DNA of 32,000 nucleotides from Aliivibrio kagoshimensis (GCF_050337105.1 NZ_JAKJSQ010000024.1:1-32000), one strand, 5' to 3'; numbered from the stretch's first letter, positions 1 to 6,182 are shown. Numbers and translations are program-made. The notes: generated from the sequence alone by a model not told the origin.

Positions 1-473
1 GTATTATATTTATATCAGTTGTTTTAAGTATATTAGTGGGGTGTGGTACAACTCGTATGGCTTACACGCCAAATGATGTTGATATTGAGAAAGCTCCGAT
101 GCTAATTGATAGGATGATAATGACTCAGCATCGTGCATGGAAACCAGATTATTTTGTCATTACTGAACATTACTTTGGTTGGGATTTTGGATATGAATCT
201 ACAACAAGTGGAGTCGGAAGTGTAGTAGGTGATAGTGGTATTGTTTTTTCTAGCTCTTCCAGCACAACTCATAGAGTCTCAGATCGGGTTTACTATGACG
301 AAGTTGCTGAAGTGAAATTATTAGACTGGACAAGAAAATTTAAACAGTGGTACGTAGTTACGCTTTATCGAGAGGATGGAAGTCAGATTATGCATATATT
401 ACGTACACGTAATTTAAAAGATGCCCAAATAATGGTTGATGCGGTTAATACTTTTCTAAAAAATCGCACATAA
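1..473 (+). CDS. Hypothetical lipoprotein, 5' end outside the window
   Basis: The frame of ORF 36..473 stays open back to nt 3. It reads IIFISVVLSILVGCGT, a hydrophobic signal segment with lipobox L-V-G-C. The listed GTG at 36 is therefore probably internal, and the stop TAA at 471-473 lies inside the repeat motif. I recognise no family. Confidence 0.6.
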   Translation, partial: IIFISVVLSILVGCGTTRMAYTPNDVDIEKAPMLIDRMIMTQHRAWKPDYFVITEHYFGWDFGYESTTSGVGSVVGDSGIVFSSSSSTTHRVSDRVYYDEVAEVKLLDWTRKFKQWYVVTLYREDGSQIMHILRTRNLKDAQIMVDAVNTFLKNRT

Positions 474-685
474 CAAATAAGAATAGGGCGGTGTTGAACA
501 AGCCCGAAGCTCCTCTCTATAATATAGTAAATTGTGAAGTTTGAGGTTATCGAGGTGATTTTGCTAGAGCAGCTCGTACCGTTTTTGTGAATTACGGGGA
601 CAGACACTTTTTCTTAATGGACGCATTTTCGGACGAATAATCATGCAACTACGTGAAATCTAGATAGGTTCAACCGCTAAAGGCT
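472..685. repeat. Modular repeat, copy 1 (L block, C block, degenerate recombinase 5' fragment, second core site)
   Basis: L block 472-504 is AACAAATAAGAATAGGGCGGTGTTGAACAAGCC and recurs at 3256-3288 and 4255-4288. Bases 536-559 are identical 24/24 to 1869-1892, with about 70% identity onward to about 600. Bases 589-616 match 3514-3541 at 27/28. A second core, GTTCAAC, lies at 668-674 and is preceded by CTAGATAGG (compare CTAGAATAGGG in the L block). Confidence 0.7.
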
Positions 686-755
686 TCTACTTTTTAACGT
701 AGAAGACGGTATTAAAATAGCTGTGGAGAAATCCTACAGCCTCGTTATGTGCCTA

Positions 756-959
756 CTATTGTGCTACTCGATCTATCGTCACACTTACTTTAGGCGCAAT
801 TATTAAAACCATGATAGGAACTAAAATTATTGTTATTGCCAAGGTTTGTTGCCACAGAGGTAATTGAAAACCTAGGTTTGTGAGTATAAATATTAGTAAT
901 GTCACAATAGGATAAACACACGCCCAAGTTAAAATAATTCTAAATATTTTTTTCTTCAT
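756..959 (-). CDS. Small 2-TM membrane protein (DUF2798-like)
   Basis: The 67-aa product has two hydrophobic helices. Its start lies 2 nt after the MarR stop, so it is the last gene of a three-gene minus-strand operon. The DUF2798 assignment is from memory of that family's size and pattern. Confidence 0.55.
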   Translation of the reverse strand: MKKKIFRIILTWACVYPIVTLLIFILTNLGFQLPLWQQTLAITIILVPIMVLIIAPKVSVTIDRVAQ

Positions 960-961
960 AT

Positions 962-1393
962 TTATCCCATTAATTTATTTATTTCATTGAAATATCCAGG
1001 AAGAACATTGGATAAACAGGTAATTCCTTTTTTTGTTAGTGAAATTTTCTTTGCTCTTTTATCTGTATCATCATTACTCGAAGTCAGTAAGCCATCCTCA
1101 ATTAACCTTTTTAACGTCCTTGTCAGTACTGGCCGTGACACGTCTAAACGGGATGCGATTTCATGTGCATAGAGACTGGTTCTATCGGGCTCTCGATCAA
1201 TAACAATAAGTATTAAAAACCTTAGCTGTGAAAGATCATGACTAGAAAAATAGGTTTCTATATTCCTTACTAGCAGGCTTGATTGTCGCATTATGCAAAG
1301 AGCTTCAGTTATTGTGTTCTTCTCATTACTTGTTAAATCACTTGTGTATTTATCAAGCATTGCTTTGGTCGGAAGTTCCTTTAGAAAAAACAT
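962..1393 (-). CDS. MarR family transcriptional regulator
   Basis: The 143-aa product has a winged-helix region (LYAHEIASRLDVSRPVLTRTLKRLIEDGLL...DKRAKKISLTKKG) typical of MarR. Confidence 0.85.
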   Translation of the reverse strand: MFFLKELPTKAMLDKYTSDLTSNEKNTITEALCIMRQSSLLVRNIETYFSSHDLSQLRFLILIVIDREPDRTSLYAHEIASRLDVSRPVLTRTLKRLIEDGLLTSSNDDTDKRAKKISLTKKGITCLSNVLPGYFNEINKLMG

Positions 1394-1402
1394 ATTTTAC
1401 CT

Positions 1403-1693
1403 TTAGGCTAGTTTAATAAGTTTAGAAATTTCAGGTGGGGTTGCTAACCAGTCAGTGTAAGCTTCAAAAACAGCTTTTGTATAACCCATTTCATGATGAA
1501 GTTTCAAAGCATTGTCATCAATCCATTCTTCGTATAGGTATAAACTACCAGCTCCATCTTCATGGAGTGTAAACTCTAAGCACCCAGATTCATTCCGAGT
1601 CTGCGATATAATTTCTATAATAGCCTCTTTTGATACCTCAAAATATTCTGGTTTTGGCGTTATCTTTGCAAAAATAAACGTATGCTTATTCAT
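1403..1693 (-). CDS. Antibiotic-biosynthesis-monooxygenase (ABM) family protein
   Basis: It has ABM-like ferredoxin-fold sequence (FIFAKITPKPEY...GCLEFTLHED...LYLYEEWIDDNALKLHH). I chose the ATG at 1693 because AAGGA lies 7 nt upstream. The ORF track's longer start at 1726 is possible. Confidence 0.8.
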   Translation of the reverse strand: MNKHTFIFAKITPKPEYFEVSKEAIIEIISQTRNESGCLEFTLHEDGAGSLYLYEEWIDDNALKLHHEMGYTKAVFEAYTDWLATPPEISKLIKLA

Positions 1694-1731
1694 AAATATA
1701 TCCTTCATTTGAAATTTAGTTATCATGGTAA

Positions 1732-1935
1732 CTATATTTCAAATGAAGTCACTTTACAAGGCACATAATGAATTAACGGGGACTGGCACTTTTCCAGGCA
1801 ATCGAGATATTGAGTCACTCGCGTTACGGCTCGTGAGTACGCATCTATGGTGGCAGGTCGTTTTCCTTGAAGTTTGAGGTTATCGAGGTGATGTTGGTAC
1901 AGTAATTCGTATCGTTTTTGTTGTTGAATATCCAT
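1732..1935 (-). pseudogene. Truncated tyrosine recombinase, N-terminal SAM-like domain only
   Basis: MDIQQQKRYELLYQHHLDNLKLQGKRPATIDAYSRAVTRVTQYLD matches the N-terminal core-binding (SAM-like) domain of tyrosine recombinases, including the type found upstream of some IS91-family transposases. The ORF ends after about 67 codons, with no catalytic domain, directly against the ABM gene. Confidence 0.65.
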
Positions 1936-2023
1936 AACAGATCTCCACTTAATCTGGTTTAATAACAATCAGTTAGGGTAGTATGGTTTTTATTCCGCCG
2001 CGAAGCGGCTTCGTTCAACAAGC
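1866..2023. repeat. Parent copy of the repeat: recombinase 5' coding region, leader, GC hairpin and core site
   Basis: Bases 1869-1930 align with 536-597. The hairpin GCCGC-GAA-GCGGC is at 1997-2009 and the core GTTCAACAAGC at 2013-2023. Confidence 0.6.
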
Positions 2024-2149
2024 AATTAAACAAGGACAAAAAATAGTGGTTTTTGTTCCTTCGTCACTATTTTCGCCAACAATTTTTTACCTGTTAATGT
2101 GGGCGTTAGAAGCTTGCTATACCAATAGGACCCACTTAAACGATGCTCG

Positions 2150-2158
2150 TGATATAAT
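2150..2158 (+). promoter_or_regulatory. Possible extended -10 promoter element (TGATATAAT) for the yhfG-fic pair
   Basis: The TGnTATAAT match lies 32 nt upstream of the ATG at 2190. I saw no good -35 element. Confidence 0.3.
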
Positions 2159-2189
2159 GGGAGTATGATTAAGATATTAGGTTTCCAGT

Positions 2190-2666
2190 ATGAATGTTTC
2201 GATAACTAAGATCTTGGCTTGTAAGAGTGTTGAAGAGCTGAAGTCGCTAGATTCTTATTTAGGATTGAAAAGGTCAGTTGAAGATAAGTTAGGCTTTAAG
2301 CTGCACGTAAAGGGATGGGAGTCTTTTTTCAACCGTATAAAGTCCCTTAAATCGTTGGTTTCAAAAAGTAAAAATGAGTTAGAAAGAATTCCAGATGCTA
2401 AGTCTTTTGTAGAAGCTAAGCGAGAGGCTAATAATGTTCTAGGCTTTAAAATAGATGTAAAGGAACTATCTAAACTTAAGGAAATGCTGAGATCATTAAT
2501 ATCCGTATTTTCTCAAGCCGTGATCAGCGCCCATGAGCGGTTTGAATCAACTAAAATTAGAAATTTTGTCCATAGTTCTAGATTAGAAGGTATAGATATT
2601 TCCAATCAAATGCCGGAACAATCATTGGAAAGTATTCTAGCTAAATATAGAGTGAAACATGGATAA
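2190..2666 (+). CDS. yhfG: Fic antitoxin, YhfG/VbhA-like C-terminus with a long N-terminal extension
   Basis: The C-terminal part (KIRNFVHSSRLEGIDIS...LESILAKYR) resembles E. coli YhfG and contains the inhibitory S-x-x-x-E-G motif (S129..E133-G134, nt 2574-2591). Its stop overlaps the fic start (ATGGATAA at 2659-2666). The N-terminal roughly 100 aa contain an internal duplication. Confidence 0.7.
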   Translation: MNVSITKILACKSVEELKSLDSYLGLKRSVEDKLGFKLHVKGWESFFNRIKSLKSLVSKSKNELERIPDAKSFVEAKREANNVLGFKIDVKELSKLKEMLRSLISVFSQAVISAHERFESTKIRNFVHSSRLEGIDISNQMPEQSLESILAKYRVKHG

Positions 2667-3243
2667 GTATGATGCTTCTAACGATCATTACTGCTACAAG
2701 AATAGTTCGACTTTAGTCAATTTGCTAAACATCGAAGATATAGACACGTTGGAAGCTGCAGAGCGCGACATTACAGCTAAAACAGTGGCAAACGTTACTT
2801 TTTCTGAACCCCCTTACGATCTTGCGTATATGCAGAGTCTGCATCGTGAGCTTTTTTCTGTCTTGTACAGCTGGGCTGGTGAGGTTAGAGCTGTTGATAT
2901 ATCAAAAGGAGGTACTCGTTTTTGTACATGCTCACGTATTGAAGCTGAATCAGCCAAGCAGTTTGATAATTTAGCTAAAGATGGTTGGCTTAAAGGGCTA
3001 AAGCGGGAAGAGTTTTGTGAAAAACTAGCCGAATACTATTGCGAGTTCAATATGGTTCACCCTTTTAGGGAGGGGAACGGTAGGGTTCAGAGACTTTTGT
3101 TCGAACATTTAGCTCTAGCTGCAGGATATGAGCTAAATTGGGAGCATGTCGATACGTCTGAATGGGTGCAAGCAAATATCGACGGTGTTTATGTAAACTA
3201 CGAACCTATGAAAAACATATTCTTGACCGTTGTGCAATCCTAA
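2659..3243 (+). CDS. fic: Fic family protein (AMP transferase-type toxin)
   Basis: The canonical Fic motif HPFREGNGRVQR is at nt 3058-3093, and overall similarity to E. coli Fic (about 200 aa) is clear. Confidence 0.9.
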   Translation: MDKYDASNDHYCYKNSSTLVNLLNIEDIDTLEAAERDITAKTVANVTFSEPPYDLAYMQSLHRELFSVLYSWAGEVRAVDISKGGTRFCTCSRIEAESAKQFDNLAKDGWLKGLKREEFCEKLAEYYCEFNMVHPFREGNGRVQRLLFEHLALAAGYELNWEHVDTSEWVQANIDGVYVNYEPMKNIFLTVVQS

Positions 3244-3255
3244 CCATCCGCTTCT

Positions 3256-3360
3256 AACAAACTAGAATAAGGCGGTGTTGAACAAGCCTTAAACCCCTCC
3301 TATATAGTAAATTGTGAAGTTTGAGTTTGTGTCGACTTACGAGAACAGACACTTTTTATT
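3256..3360. repeat. Modular repeat, copy 2 (L and C blocks, internally deleted recombinase-leader fragment)
   Basis: The L block is at 3256-3288 (AACAAACTAGAATAAGGCGGTGTTGAACAAGCC). The C block shares TAGTAAATTGTGAAGTTTGAG with copy 1. About 45 nt are missing relative to copy 1, followed by ACTTACGAGAACAGACACTTTTT. CAGACACT (3346-3353) and AGTGTCTG (3383-3390) could pair. Confidence 0.7.
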
Positions 3361-3513
3361 GGTGATACTCCCTATAGATATGAGTGTCTGCCCCGCTGTA
3401 AACGTGAGTAAGAACCGACGAATCACGATCTCCGTTATATCTATGCGATTAAATAGTATGGAAACAAAATGTTAGAAATAGAGAAAGTTAACGAATCAAA
3501 TATTGAGTCAATG

Positions 3514-3541
3514 GAATTACGAGGACAGACACTTTTTCTTA
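3514..3541. repeat. Isolated fragment of the repeat R block
   Basis: GAATTACGAGGACAGACACTTTTTCTTA matches 589-616 at 27/28. Confidence 0.55.
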
Positions 3542-3655
3542 CTAAATGTAGATTTACCAAGGCTGTCATGCCATTTGCTGAGAAAATCGCCCGCCAGCAC
3601 ATGGCTCACTTATTAGCAGGGCGTTATGTGTTCTTTCTGAGTCAGGGTGACAATA

Positions 3656-4234
3656 ATGAAGAAGATACTGGTTATAAATGGAAACCCAAAAAAGCAAAGC
3701 CTCTGCAAATCATTAGCAGAAACATACGCGCACGGTGCAACGGCTTCAGGCCATGACGTTGATGTGTTTCATTTAGCAGATTGTGAATTTAGCACAGTCC
3801 TCAAATCTGGTTATGAGAATAAACAGCCTTTAGAAGAATCACTTCAAATCATTAAGGAAAAGATTGAAGAATCTAATCATGTGGTGGTTGTTTCTCCGGT
3901 TTGGTGGGGGTCAGTGCCAGCATTATTGAAAGGAATGGTAGATCGAATTTTTTTACCAGGTTTTGCATTCAAATATGAGAAAAGTGATGTGTTACCAAAA
4001 CGTCTATTAAAAGGAAGGTCTGCAAGAATCATTCTCACAATGGACACTCCAATTTGGTACTACAAACTCTTTTATGGATCTCCAGCCACAAAAATGATGA
4101 AAAAAACCGTATTTGAATTTTGTGGTTTCAGTCAGGTTAAAGTTACTGAGTTTGGCTCTGTTTTGAAATCTAATGAAAATCAGCGGATAAAATGGCTTGA
4201 AAAAGTGAAGCAGCAAGGTGTAATGGCTATTTAA
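3656..4234 (+). CDS. Flavodoxin-like-fold NAD(P)H dehydrogenase (quinone), KefF/MdaB-like
   Basis: MKKILVINGNPKKQSLCKSLAE...VVVSPVWWGSVPALLKGMVDRIF is typical of the Flavodoxin_2 family. I preferred the ATG at 3656 to the GTG at 3647. Confidence 0.85.
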   Translation: MKKILVINGNPKKQSLCKSLAETYAHGATASGHDVDVFHLADCEFSTVLKSGYENKQPLEESLQIIKEKIEESNHVVVVSPVWWGSVPALLKGMVDRIFLPGFAFKYEKSDVLPKRLLKGRSARIILTMDTPIWYYKLFYGSPATKMMKKTVFEFCGFSQVKVTEFGSVLKSNENQRIKWLEKVKQQGVMAI

Positions 4235-4236
4235 AG

Positions 4237-4332
4237 TTAGAACCAAAACGCAGATAAAAAACTAGAATAGGGCGGTATTGTACAAGCCGATAATGCAAAA
4301 CAAACAAGTACTAGGCTAAGCAGTTTTTTCAC
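4237..4332 (-). CDS. Candidate 31-aa mini-lipoprotein overlapping repeat L block copy 3
   Basis: A GTG at 4332 lies 8 nt downstream of AAGGAG (4341-4346 on +). The product is MKKLLSLVLVCFALSACTIPPYSSFLSAFWF, with lipobox L-S-A-C, and the stop TAA is at 4237-4239. It is too short for the ORF track, so treat it as speculative. Confidence 0.35.
   Translation of the reverse strand: MKKLLSLVLVCFALSACTIPPYSSFLSAFWF
4255..4288. repeat. Repeat L block, copy 3 (variant core ATTGTACAAGCC)
   Basis: AAAAAACTAGAATAGGGCGGTATTGTACAAGCC aligns with 472-504 and 3256-3288. It lies 21 nt after the stop of the preceding + strand gene. Confidence 0.6.
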
Positions 4333-4451
4333 GATAATAACTCCTTGCATATCGAATATAACCTGTTCATTACAAGTGCAATTCCAGATAATGTCAAATC
4401 ATTTACTAGTTATTGATAACTCGATTTTTGTACTCTGCGGAGTGTAATTTC

Positions 4452-4462
4452 GTTCAACAAGG
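4452..4462. repeat. Last copy of the core site (GTTCAACAAGG), probable accessory/core boundary
   Basis: It shares TTCGTTCAACAAG with 2010-2022. No repeat blocks occur to the right of it. Confidence 0.4.
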
Positions 4463-4544
4463 GTCAGTCATGGGCTCGGTGCCATGTACATATGATCAGA
4501 TTTAATAGGACGTAGTTAAAGCGGCATAGCTACACACAAAACTC

Positions 4545-4569
4545 AAAAAGGGAGCAACTTGCTCCCTTT
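4545..4569 (-). terminator. Rho-independent terminator downstream of codA
   Basis: The GGGAGCA-ACT-TGCTCCC hairpin (4550-4566) is flanked by AAAAA on the + strand, which gives a T run after the hairpin on the codA strand. Confidence 0.6.
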
Positions 4570-4602
4570 GTGGTTATTTACATCGATAAAAAAGTGCACT
4601 GC

Positions 4603-5895: not shown

Positions 5896-6182
5896 GCTTT
5901 TTCCTCGATTGAACCGACAAGAGAATCATACTCTATATTAAGCCAATTGATCGGATAGTTTCCCTTGGAGGTGCTTATTGATTAGCGGTGCAGATACATT
6001 AACTGCGAGCCAGTGGGTTTTAAGCGTGAAATAGATGAAACGTGAAGGGGAAGTTTGTGAGTGAGGTGGCTAACTTGTCAGCTCTACTGCCCAAAAAATA
6101 GTGATAATCAGTGGAATCAGTCCAGGTATGGTAAACCTATTACTAGCAGTATCAGAAATGAACTCAGTAAAAGGATAATCAA

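Follow-up and report, generated by a model that had tools for sequence, protein, structure and literature searches.

A 32,000-nt stretch of DNA from Aliivibrio kagoshimensis (GCF_050337105.1, NZ_JAKJSQ010000024.1:1-32000), here called the window, very probably opens with the end of an integron-type gene cassette array, which runs from position 1 to about 4530 beside the gene codA and in which the attC recombination sites are occupied by decayed copies of a single insertion sequence (IS) of the IS91 family that inserts at the R'' box of the site. Five cassettes were counted; four attC sites carry an IS remnant at the R'' box, and the truncated cassette 4 has lost its R''. The array extends past the window start and is either a sedentary chromosomal integron or a cluster of attC sites without an integrase (CALIN). 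An earlier inspection of the same DNA, here the sequence-only reading, had seen a gene-capture array punctuated by a modular repeat, with no attC sites, and built by a recombinase- or IS91-like element rather than by recombination between attC sites through the integron integrase IntI.

The cassettes were delimited by the rule that the start of a cassette, together with the preceding G, is complementary to the cassette's own R''. Cassette 1 carries a lipoprotein-like gene (to 473, plus strand); its R'', GCACATAAC (466-474, plus strand), abuts the IS right terminus, like the R'' in all the other insertions, and is the exact 9-nt complement of 744-752, and the remainder of its attC (672-744, plus strand) ends with the G of the R' GTTATGTGC (744-752). 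When reconstructed, this attC folds with z = -3.5, a value that includes a closing stem present by construction. Cassette 2 (745-2105, plus strand) starts with TTATGTGC and has its own R'', GCACATAAT, at 1761-1769, an 8/9 complement of GTTATGTGC. The inverted repeat I2 (742-763 / 1750-1771) corresponds to the R' and R'' of this cassette, whose genes are reverse-oriented and encode a small membrane protein (756-959), a MarR regulator (962-1393) and an ABM monooxygenase (1403-1726), all on the minus strand. The remainder of its attC, AACAAG...GGGCG|TTAGAAGC (2017-2114, plus strand), belongs to the hairpin family described below. Cassette 3 (yhfG-fic; 2106-3471, plus strand) starts with TTAGAAGC, and its R'', GCTTCTAAC at 3250-3258, pairs 9/9 with GTTAGAAGC at 2105-2113; it encodes a YhfG-like antitoxin (2190-2666, plus strand) and a Fic toxin (2659-3243, plus strand), and its attC is closed by the R' GTTAGAA (3471-3477, plus strand), the complement of TTCTAAC at 3252-3258. 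The truncated cassette 4 (3472-3623, plus strand) has no gene and holds an int-like piece and one copy (c) of a repeat module, D2. The boundary to cassette 5 is the R' GTTATGTG (3623-3630, plus strand), preceded by GGGC, with the GGGCGTTA ending seen in the attC family. The body of cassette 5 (3624-4255, plus strand) starts with TTATGTG, encodes a flavodoxin-like NAD(P)H oxidoreductase (3647-4234, plus strand) and ends in a degenerate R'', CAGATAAA at 4251-4258, with a 6/8 match to the complement of the start. The last attC remainder, AACAAGGG… (4456-4530, plus strand, end coordinate approximate), marks the array end, beside the bidirectional terminator of codA (4544-4572). Some boxes in the window deviate from strict RRR (GTTATGT), its attC sequences are heterogeneous, and the G+C content of the array region, 36-40%, is below that of the rest of the window.

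The division of the region into units that the sequence-only reading had proposed was thus borne out, with boundaries at the integron core sites 744/745, 2105/2106, 3471/3472 and 3623/3624 and not at the repeat that it called the L block. Its view that attC sites are lacking is contradicted by the split R''/R' pairs (466/744 and 3250/2105) and by the covarying hairpin family at 2017-2114. Direct single-strand folding of the repeat copies with their flanks gave no attC-like hairpin (z ~0), and the earlier reader saw no hairpin because the attC sites are split.

The sequence at 2017-2114 is 80-87% identical to Pseudoalteromonas chromid, Aliivibrio, Photobacterium and Vibrio plasmid sequences, and is homologous to the left flanks of the IS in Shewanella denitrificans and P. 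toruni. A covariance model (R1) built from four members gives 2017-2114 a score of 99.7 bits, which is not independent evidence because this sequence is one of the seeds. The model found seven non-seed matches (an eighth is the palindromic opposite strand of a seed), six of which lie immediately 3' of an annotated same-strand open reading frame (ORF), while the seventh is intergenic, within a cassette-like run. Across the 12 aligned family members 89% of cells are paired, and compensatory changes occur in 14/21 pairs, compared with 6.0±1.5 in shuffles and at most 7 in slid controls, both figures coming from an alignment fitted to the model. The modelled covariation indicates that 2017-2114 and its relatives form a structured attC-type hairpin family. 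No relevant RNA family was found in Rfam, which holds no attC model, at either the gathering threshold or E <= 5. On the Pseudoalteromonas chromid (L002), family members at 33-132, 1069-1163 and 6001-6100 each follow directly the stop of a plus-strand gene, and the same region also carries ordinary two-component and TonB genes; members of this attC-like family thus also occur scattered beyond classical arrays.

All the repeat modules that interrupt the window array appear, on comparison with relatives, to derive from one IS91-family IS of about 2.25-2.36 kb carrying a recombinase gene, int, and then a transposase gene, tnpA. Direct-repeat analysis of the window yielded four blocks, L (D1), C (D4), D3 and D2. 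The 26-nt L-block pattern occurs at 479-504, 3263-3288 and 4263-4288 (n = 3 in the window; shuffle expectation 0), with no match in the remaining 27 kb. The full L blocks begin at 472, 3256 and 4256, that is 0, 12 and 21 nt past the stop codons of plus-strand genes (471-473, 3241-3243 and 4232-4234), as had been described except for the third start, formerly placed at 4255. Every L copy in the window sits at an attC R'' box, and since L starts at the AAC of R'' it comes to lie 0-21 nt past the stop codons. The core GTTSAACAAG has five matches in the window where 0.18 are expected: four in the array region (493, 2013, 3277 and 4452, the second and fourth being cores already noted) and one within an ABC-transporter gene (7803) that is probably due to chance. 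The related core GTTCAAC is present, as claimed, at 668-674.

Scanning species-representative genomes with the L pattern returned one other locus, in a Vibrionaceae metagenome-assembled genome (L003), where it lies at the right end of an IS in a cassette array. There, an ORF matching Y2_Tnp, the IS91-family transposase domain of Pfam, lies on the strand opposite to the window's plus strand, and the L and C blocks are located about 200 nt beyond its 3' end. The element is known through relatives carrying the same termini, the window itself holding only decayed, internally deleted remnants. Intact int and tnpA genes between such termini are present at Photobacterium, Salinivibrio, E. coli plasmid, Shewanella, Vibrio, Psychromonas and Pseudoalteromonas loci, in copies of 2246-2364 bp. 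In these relatives tnpA encodes a protein of about 350-363 aa with Zn_Tnp_IS91 and Y2_Tnp domains (Pfam), which scores 344-358 bits against NF033538, 'IS91 family transposase' (cutoff 125), and the full-length int product (about 295 aa) is always encoded directly upstream of the IS91-family transposase gene on the same strand. The Y2_Tnp neighbour in L003, together with these intact relatives, upholds the earlier proposal that the repeats are linked to an IS91-type element with a recombinase. Against TIGR02249, the integron integrase model, int scores 154-162 bits (cutoff 265), with a match broken into two stretches; the XerA and XerD models match it as well as TIGR02249 does, all below cutoff, and its best relatives of solved structure are XerC-like, IntI4 and XerA. 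Because the integron-integrase match is split in two and the models score equally and below cutoff, these profile comparisons point to a Xer/IntI-like recombinase and not to an IntI. More than 7,900 homologues of int were found at E <= 1e-30, mainly in marine gammaproteobacteria (mostly Shewanella, Photobacterium, Vibrio, Pseudoalteromonas and Psychromonas), many of them on contigs of about 2.3 kb, as expected of a multi-copy IS. The window contains 5' fragments of int at 1798-1935 and 535-588, identified by blastx to the integrases of intact elements, and the close homologues of the window int fragment are all short fragments from Vibrio and Photobacterium. We take this type of element to be the ISfinder group that includes ISShvi3, ISSde12 and ISSod25 (IS91 members with an integrase); one of our loci, L009, comes from Shewanella denitrificans OS217, the species to which the ISSde names refer.

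When the repeat modules are mapped onto the element, all remnants fall on the minus strand of the window. The L block corresponds, by alignment, to the right (tnpA-distal) terminus of the IS, from which the hairpin has been lost by deletion. In L003 and the close relative L024 the full-length right end reads AACAAAC-TAGAATAGG-[hairpin…]-TAGAATAAGG-CGGTGTTGAAC; a deletion between two TAGAATARGG direct repeats (about 40 nt) yields exactly the window L, which aligns to the right ends of L003, L024 and L006-L008 minus about 40 nt. The C block matches the subterminal right-end sequence of the IS, and GTTCAACAAG is the IS left terminus (…CGTTC) joined to the AACAAG of the resident attC, with GTTC|AACAAG junctions at 2013-2022 and 4452-4461. 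GTTGAAC in L and GTTC|AAC at the left junction are, then, the two complementary terminal boxes of the element.

Remnant 1 comprises L copy 1 (472-504), C copy 1 (505-534; the D4 repeat, 92% identical to L003 462-522), an int 5' fragment of about codons 3-22 with an in-frame stop (535-588; the D3 repeat, by blastx), D2 copy a (589-616; probably the last codons of tnpA) and a stretch at 617-671 ending in GGTTC (667-671), tentatively a variant left terminus, as GGTTC|AAC resembles the left junctions; its flank is CGGTT rather than TTGTT, and 649-671 is conserved with Vibrio plasmids. In this copy the microhomology CTCAAACTTCA marks the point where the int codons (about 3-22) are fused with the final 60 nt of the element. 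In cassette 2, a weak D2 copy (D2', copy d, 1771-1798) lies between int codon 46 and the cassette's R'', followed by int codons 1-46 (MDIQQQKRYELLYQHHLDNLKLQGKRPATIDAYSRAV..., 1798-1935; blastx 61-67% to the integrases of intact elements, 91% identical to P0001, with a weak PF13495 match) and by the int 5' untranslated region with the canonical IS left terminus GAACGAAGCCGCTTCGCGGCGG (1936-2016; hairpin at 1997-2009), the left end shared with other copies. The D3 block (54 nt, 535-588 vs 1868-1921, 87% identity) has its second copy within this N-terminal tyrosine-recombinase fragment. In the R'' of cassette 3 stands a right end, L copy 2 (3256-3288) with C copy 2 (3289-3333), continuing into D2 copy b (3334-3361) and an inverted D2-like arm (about 3383-3402), which form a hairpin (3334-3402); the extent of this remnant towards 3465 is uncertain. 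The piece in cassette 4 (3492-3541; D6 and D2 repeats) consists of an int-like stretch assigned by eye (3492-3513, VTQYLD region) and D2 copy c (3514-3541). The last attC site holds a decayed, internally deleted 200-bp remnant (4256-4455) with a mutated L (4256-4288) and a degenerate left terminus, …GCGGAGTGTAATTTCGTTC, ending at 4455. Internally deleted derivatives of the IS also occur elsewhere, of 404 bp (L004), about 773 bp (L008) and one in L024. The sequence-only reading had held that copies 1 and 2 share the C block and pieces of the recombinase gene: the C block is indeed common to both (96% identity), no recombinase piece adjoins that of copy 2, and the description is corrected by a separate module, D2, which the two copies share beyond C.

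D2 is a 29-nt module, GAATTACGRGGACAGACACTTTTTCTTA, with copies at 589-616, 3334-3361 and 3514-3541 and weaker ones at 1771-1798 (2 mismatches in 15) and, inverted, at 3383-3397. It was not found in the intact relatives, nor by BLAST in public plasmids; a metagenome scan gave seven unrelated chance matches and a viral scan none. In L024 a D2-like sequence (18/22 identical) lies immediately upstream of the tnpA stop and the conserved 3' untranslated region, and in the tnpA frame L024 reads GKSACRCNF* and the window D2 KSVCPRNS, the canonical termini being …EMACVGISRTM*. With moderate confidence, this similarity suggests that D2 probably represents the last codons of tnpA in this IS lineage. By eye, D2 gave no consensus match as a Tn3-type inverted repeat, a dif site, a group II intron end or a separate attC type, and it was rejected as an N-terminal extension of int, the sequence beside D2 being different at each copy. 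We likewise rejected 617-1770 (MarR, ABM monooxygenase and membrane protein) as cargo in one IS flanked by D2 direct repeats, I2 being the R'/R'' boxes of an ordinary cassette in reverse orientation.

Both junctions were extracted from all loci, which span seven genera and provided 14 left and 17 right junctions. On the element strand the left end is always GAACGAAGCCGC-N3-GCGGCAG… and the right end always …GGCTTGTTCAACAC-[hairpin]-CCTTATTTGTT; the canonical left end is common to L004-L009, L013-L016, L025 and L026. The ends are asymmetric and bear subterminal hairpins (left, GCCGC-N3-GCGGC; the right one covaries). The left flank ends in TTGTT in 14/14 cases and the right flank starts with A in 17/17, always as A(T/G/A)NN, with no target duplication (in L004, element terminal CTGTT vs left flank TTGTT). 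Viewed on the cassette strand, the element stands between T and AAC, as in GTCT^AAC, ACAT^AAC, GCCT^AAC and TTCT^AAC, so that the boxes it splits conform to the RYYYAAC inverse core (R'') of attC, at one fixed point. Only one orientation was seen, antisense to the cassettes in the arrays examined. In the decisive case, an E. coli IncC plasmid (L006), a class 1 integron carries the element between aadA1 and qacEΔ1, and its removal restores the complete aadA1 attC, split as GTCT|AACAATTCG…. A near-identity search with the L006 element returned one plasmid and a fragment, and no E. coli chromosome. The element is also antisense to runs of small same-strand genes in Salinivibrio (L007), a V. tritonius-like strain (L008), P. 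toruni (L004) and Pseudoalteromonas sp. A25 (L026).

Could the L block and core simply be a generic genome-wide repeat of the repetitive extragenic palindromic (REP) or miniature inverted-repeat transposable element (MITE) type that has nothing to do with gene mobility and lies close to gene ends by coincidence? The copies are indeed short and sit in intergenic, non-coding DNA, and three units of about 200 bp (472-671, 3256-~3465 and 4256-4455) look MITE-like. However, all the modules map to one IS, the other 27 kb of the window hold no copy, the exact L pattern recurs in just one other species-representative genome, at an IS right end in a cassette array, and the insertion point is invariant, which makes this explanation extremely unlikely.

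According to the alternative put forward in the sequence-only reading, the IS91 element itself would have gathered the genes, with no part played by IntI and attC. One-ended rolling-circle transposition past the left end would then take the adjacent gene along and lay down units of IS and gene in succession. IS91 and ISCR elements are able to co-mobilise DNA beside their left (terIS) end (PMC7923331), and the geometry fits, each gene block being bounded on one side by the left end of a remnant and on the other by the right end of the following remnant. Nevertheless, the unit boundaries follow the integron cassette rule, each start being complementary to its own R'', and the cassette genes fall outside the IS boundaries. 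What separates the IS left end from the next gene is the conserved, covarying attC hairpin, which is also present, free of any IS, beside ORFs in other genomes. The same IS, moreover, occupies the aadA1 attC in a class 1 integron, where the cassettes are known products of IntI, and cassettes in L024, L002, L007 and L008 are flanked by IS-free sites. We therefore consider assembly by the IS very unlikely, and prefer a cassette array of integron type that was later used as a target by the IS.

The joined ends of the IS suggest how an R'' box might be targeted. As DNA, the joined ends of three diverse copies fold into an attC-like structure (z = -5.0 to -5.8) that consists of an outer stem, GCTTGTTCAAC / GTTGAAC(G)AAGC, spacers without pairing, a bulged inner stem and a loop of 6 nt. 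Pairing in the inner stem reaches 91.7%, with compensatory changes in 4/8 pairs; this count refers to the inner stem, the outer stem resting on the individual folds. One could then regard the element itself as an integron cassette, inserted by the host IntI, with its joined-end attC, at R'' in a top-strand reaction, int and tnpA being irrelevant to targeting. The perfectly complementary boxes GTTCAAC/GTTGAAC, the bulged bases and the covarying inner stem of the joined ends speak for it, and the crossover can be placed inside the GTT of an opposite-strand GTTRRRY box. Yet every insertion observed has hit R'' and not the canonical G|TT site of R', some lie outside arrays (L014, L025), and the very large multi-copy family with its contigs of about 2.3 kb is typical of an active IS, whose ends, in addition, bear the terminal inverted repeats and subterminal hairpins expected of the IS91 type. 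Movement of this kind is thus very unlikely.

In a bolder reading, which we propose tentatively and do not regard as probable, this IS91 subgroup would combine a rolling-circle transposon with an integron cassette, having a junction that acts as a functional attC mimic and a recombinase of its own, and not the host IntI, that recombines the circle with R''. In the more general mechanism that we propose for the insertions, the Y2 transposase would release a single-stranded circle by rolling-circle replication; the circle junction …TTTGTT|GAACGAAG… would fold into an attC-like hairpin with the boxes GTTCAAC/GTTGAAC; and the folded junction would be joined to the TTGTT^A that a folded attC exposes at its R'' end. 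For the joining we favour the Xer/IntI-like recombinase of the element; the alternative would be the HUH enzyme recognising TTGTT, as IS200/IS605 enzymes recognise their targets. Insertion would part R'' from the rest of the attC, rendering the site inactive for IntI and freezing the cassette. If the hybrid reading is true, the end and strand of insertion are opposite to those of normal cassette insertion, each insertion would create two hybrid sites, frozen cassettes and new boundaries, possibly carrying neighbouring cassettes along, and the subgroup would be an attC parasite of a mechanistically new class.

Several observations weigh against our interpretation of the array and its IS. Concerning the cassettes, exact 9-mer complement pairs of this type also arise by chance: there are eight pairs in 4.6 kb, of which two are interpreted, and an incidental GCTTCTAAC at 2674 inside fic gives a third pair; position therefore carries part of the cassette argument. 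Covariance model R1 matches only 2017-2114 among the attC sites of the window, the others being defined by R''/R' complementarity and position. No intI was found in the 32-kb window, and no integrase among the ORFs of 5900-32000, the array exceeding the window start. Concerning the IS, blastx found no tnpA in the window, which also holds no intact IS copy; where the left boundary of remnants 1 and 2 falls is uncertain; D2 was assigned from a single relative and a weak protein similarity; and four junctions break right after D2, for which our interpretation has no explanation. Concerning the target, the insertions in L014 and L025 follow the same sequence rule outside obvious arrays, and because of these two the target may be TTGTTA in a suitable context, not attC as such. 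The tetranucleotides GAAC/CAAG (GTTC/CTTG), to which the sequence-only reading had assigned a role as IS91 targets, abut the right (oriIS) end at none of the 17 right flanks, which begin with A instead; the left end opens with GAAC as its first four bases, and at the right end CTTGTTC stands in a subterminal position.

Within the window cassettes, three further features were observed. At 1703-1748 a near-perfect 46-bp palindrome, made of two 23-nt arms that are 91% complementary and have no spacer between them, has its centre at the start of the ABM monooxygenase-MarR operon and is likely a MarR operator. The gene for the YhfG-like antitoxin has an internal repeat (2290-2313 / 2440-2463, 150-nt spacing; LGFKLHVKG… / LGFKIDVKE…), which suggests a tandem-duplicated N-terminal module ahead of the YhfG domain. 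The 100-nt block 649-748 (CTACGTGAAATCTAGATA…TTTTAACGTAGAAGAC…GGAGAAATCCTACAG.CTCGTTAT), which takes in the tentative left end of remnant 1 together with most of the cassette 1 attC remainder, is 73-78% identical to intergenic sequences of V. parahaemolyticus and V. diabolicus plasmids, and in NZ_CP060089.1 (L001) it is near a serine recombinase and a Tn3-family transposase.

The CodA of the window is 100% identical to the Aliivibrio kagoshimensis protein. The relative L024 encodes a CodA 97% identical to that of the window, with which its synteny resumes at 4561; past that point L024 has wholly different cassettes (VapBC, BrnT and others), only the IS end pieces being common. On the other side of codA, L024 carries between codA and the type I secretion ABC transporter a 2.5-kb insertion (7376-9908, vs window 5988-6003) that the window does not have; it contains toxin-antitoxin pairs of the RelE/MqsA-like and ParE/Phd kinds as well as a copy of the same IS with an internal deletion, so that codA is there flanked by cassettes on both sides. 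The type I secretion cluster after codA (window 6183-12493), about 84% conserved in L024, comprises a C39-peptidase ABC transporter (6183-8300), an HlyD-like adaptor (8297-9625) and a 229-aa ORF followed by a 733-aa RTX-repeat protein (10292-12493). Among the other loci with the element, L016 has two IS copies in the same orientation (225-2345 and 3450 onward) with one reverse-strand gene (T5orf172/MUG113) between them; adjacent attC sites can thus take repeated insertions, and in such an arrangement one copy could mobilise the intervening gene. In addition, IS110-family (DEDD) transposase genes lie about 1-5.5 kb from IS91-plus-integrase elements in the same small-gene stretches (L009 7139-8110; L010 3451-4422; L013 6671-7692; L008 3690-4808 and 14058-14522) and may belong to IS1111-attC-type elements in the same niche.

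Compared with known systems, the element resembles the ISShvi3/ISSde12/ISSod25 group in its two genes, size of about 2.3 kb, lack of target duplication and subterminal hairpins; unlike members of that group, the window remnants are decayed, internally deleted and hairpin-less. With the classical IS91, IS801, IS1294 and ISCR elements it has in common the NF033538 transposase, the lack of duplication, orientation-specific insertion, asymmetric ends and possible co-mobilisation at the left end, whereas classical IS91 elements have a GAAC/CAAG target abutting the right end and no recombinase gene, in place of the TTGTT^A flank and int found here. The array, for its part, is like Vibrionaceae integrons and CALINs in its RYYYAAC/GTTRRRY boxes, in cassette starts complementary to their own R'', in an attC directly after the ORF, and in its toxin-antitoxin pair, small accessory genes, low G+C and content varying between relatives; it is unlike Vibrionaceae integrons in the IS remnants at four of five attC R'' boxes, the heterogeneous attC sites and the lack of intI in the window.

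Other parasites of attC are the IS1111-attC elements (IS110 family) and the class C-attC group II introns, which likewise insert in a fixed orientation and interrupt arrays (PMC9229058). They differ from the present element in their machinery, a DEDD transposase with bridge RNA for IS1111-attC and a reverse transcriptase with ribozyme for the group IIC introns, as against a Y2 HUH enzyme and a tyrosine recombinase here, and in the insertion point, which here is the R'' box. No DEDD transposase, reverse transcriptase or group II ribozyme was found among the ORFs and RNAs of window 1-4600. The full text of the literature, in a search whose incomplete coverage makes this an absence of evidence only, yielded no description of attC targeting, R'' specificity or attC mimicry by IS91-plus-integrase elements; one study notes only the adjacency of such IS91 elements to an attC (PMC9229058).

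In conclusion, the feature of the window is best seen as what is left of a catalogued type of IS within an ordinary cassette array, and no new gene-capture system is needed. The part worth following up is the R''-specific, single-orientation insertion of the IS91-plus-recombinase elements together with their attC-like junction, in a family that has entered a class 1 integron carried by an IncC resistance plasmid. Should the rule hold, it would give a testable role to the so far unexplained accessory integrase of these IS91 members, which would become a third class of attC parasite beside IS1111-attC and the group IIC introns. It would also suggest a route to cassette immobilisation in chromosomal arrays, and would explain why attC-finding software may overlook sites in such arrays.

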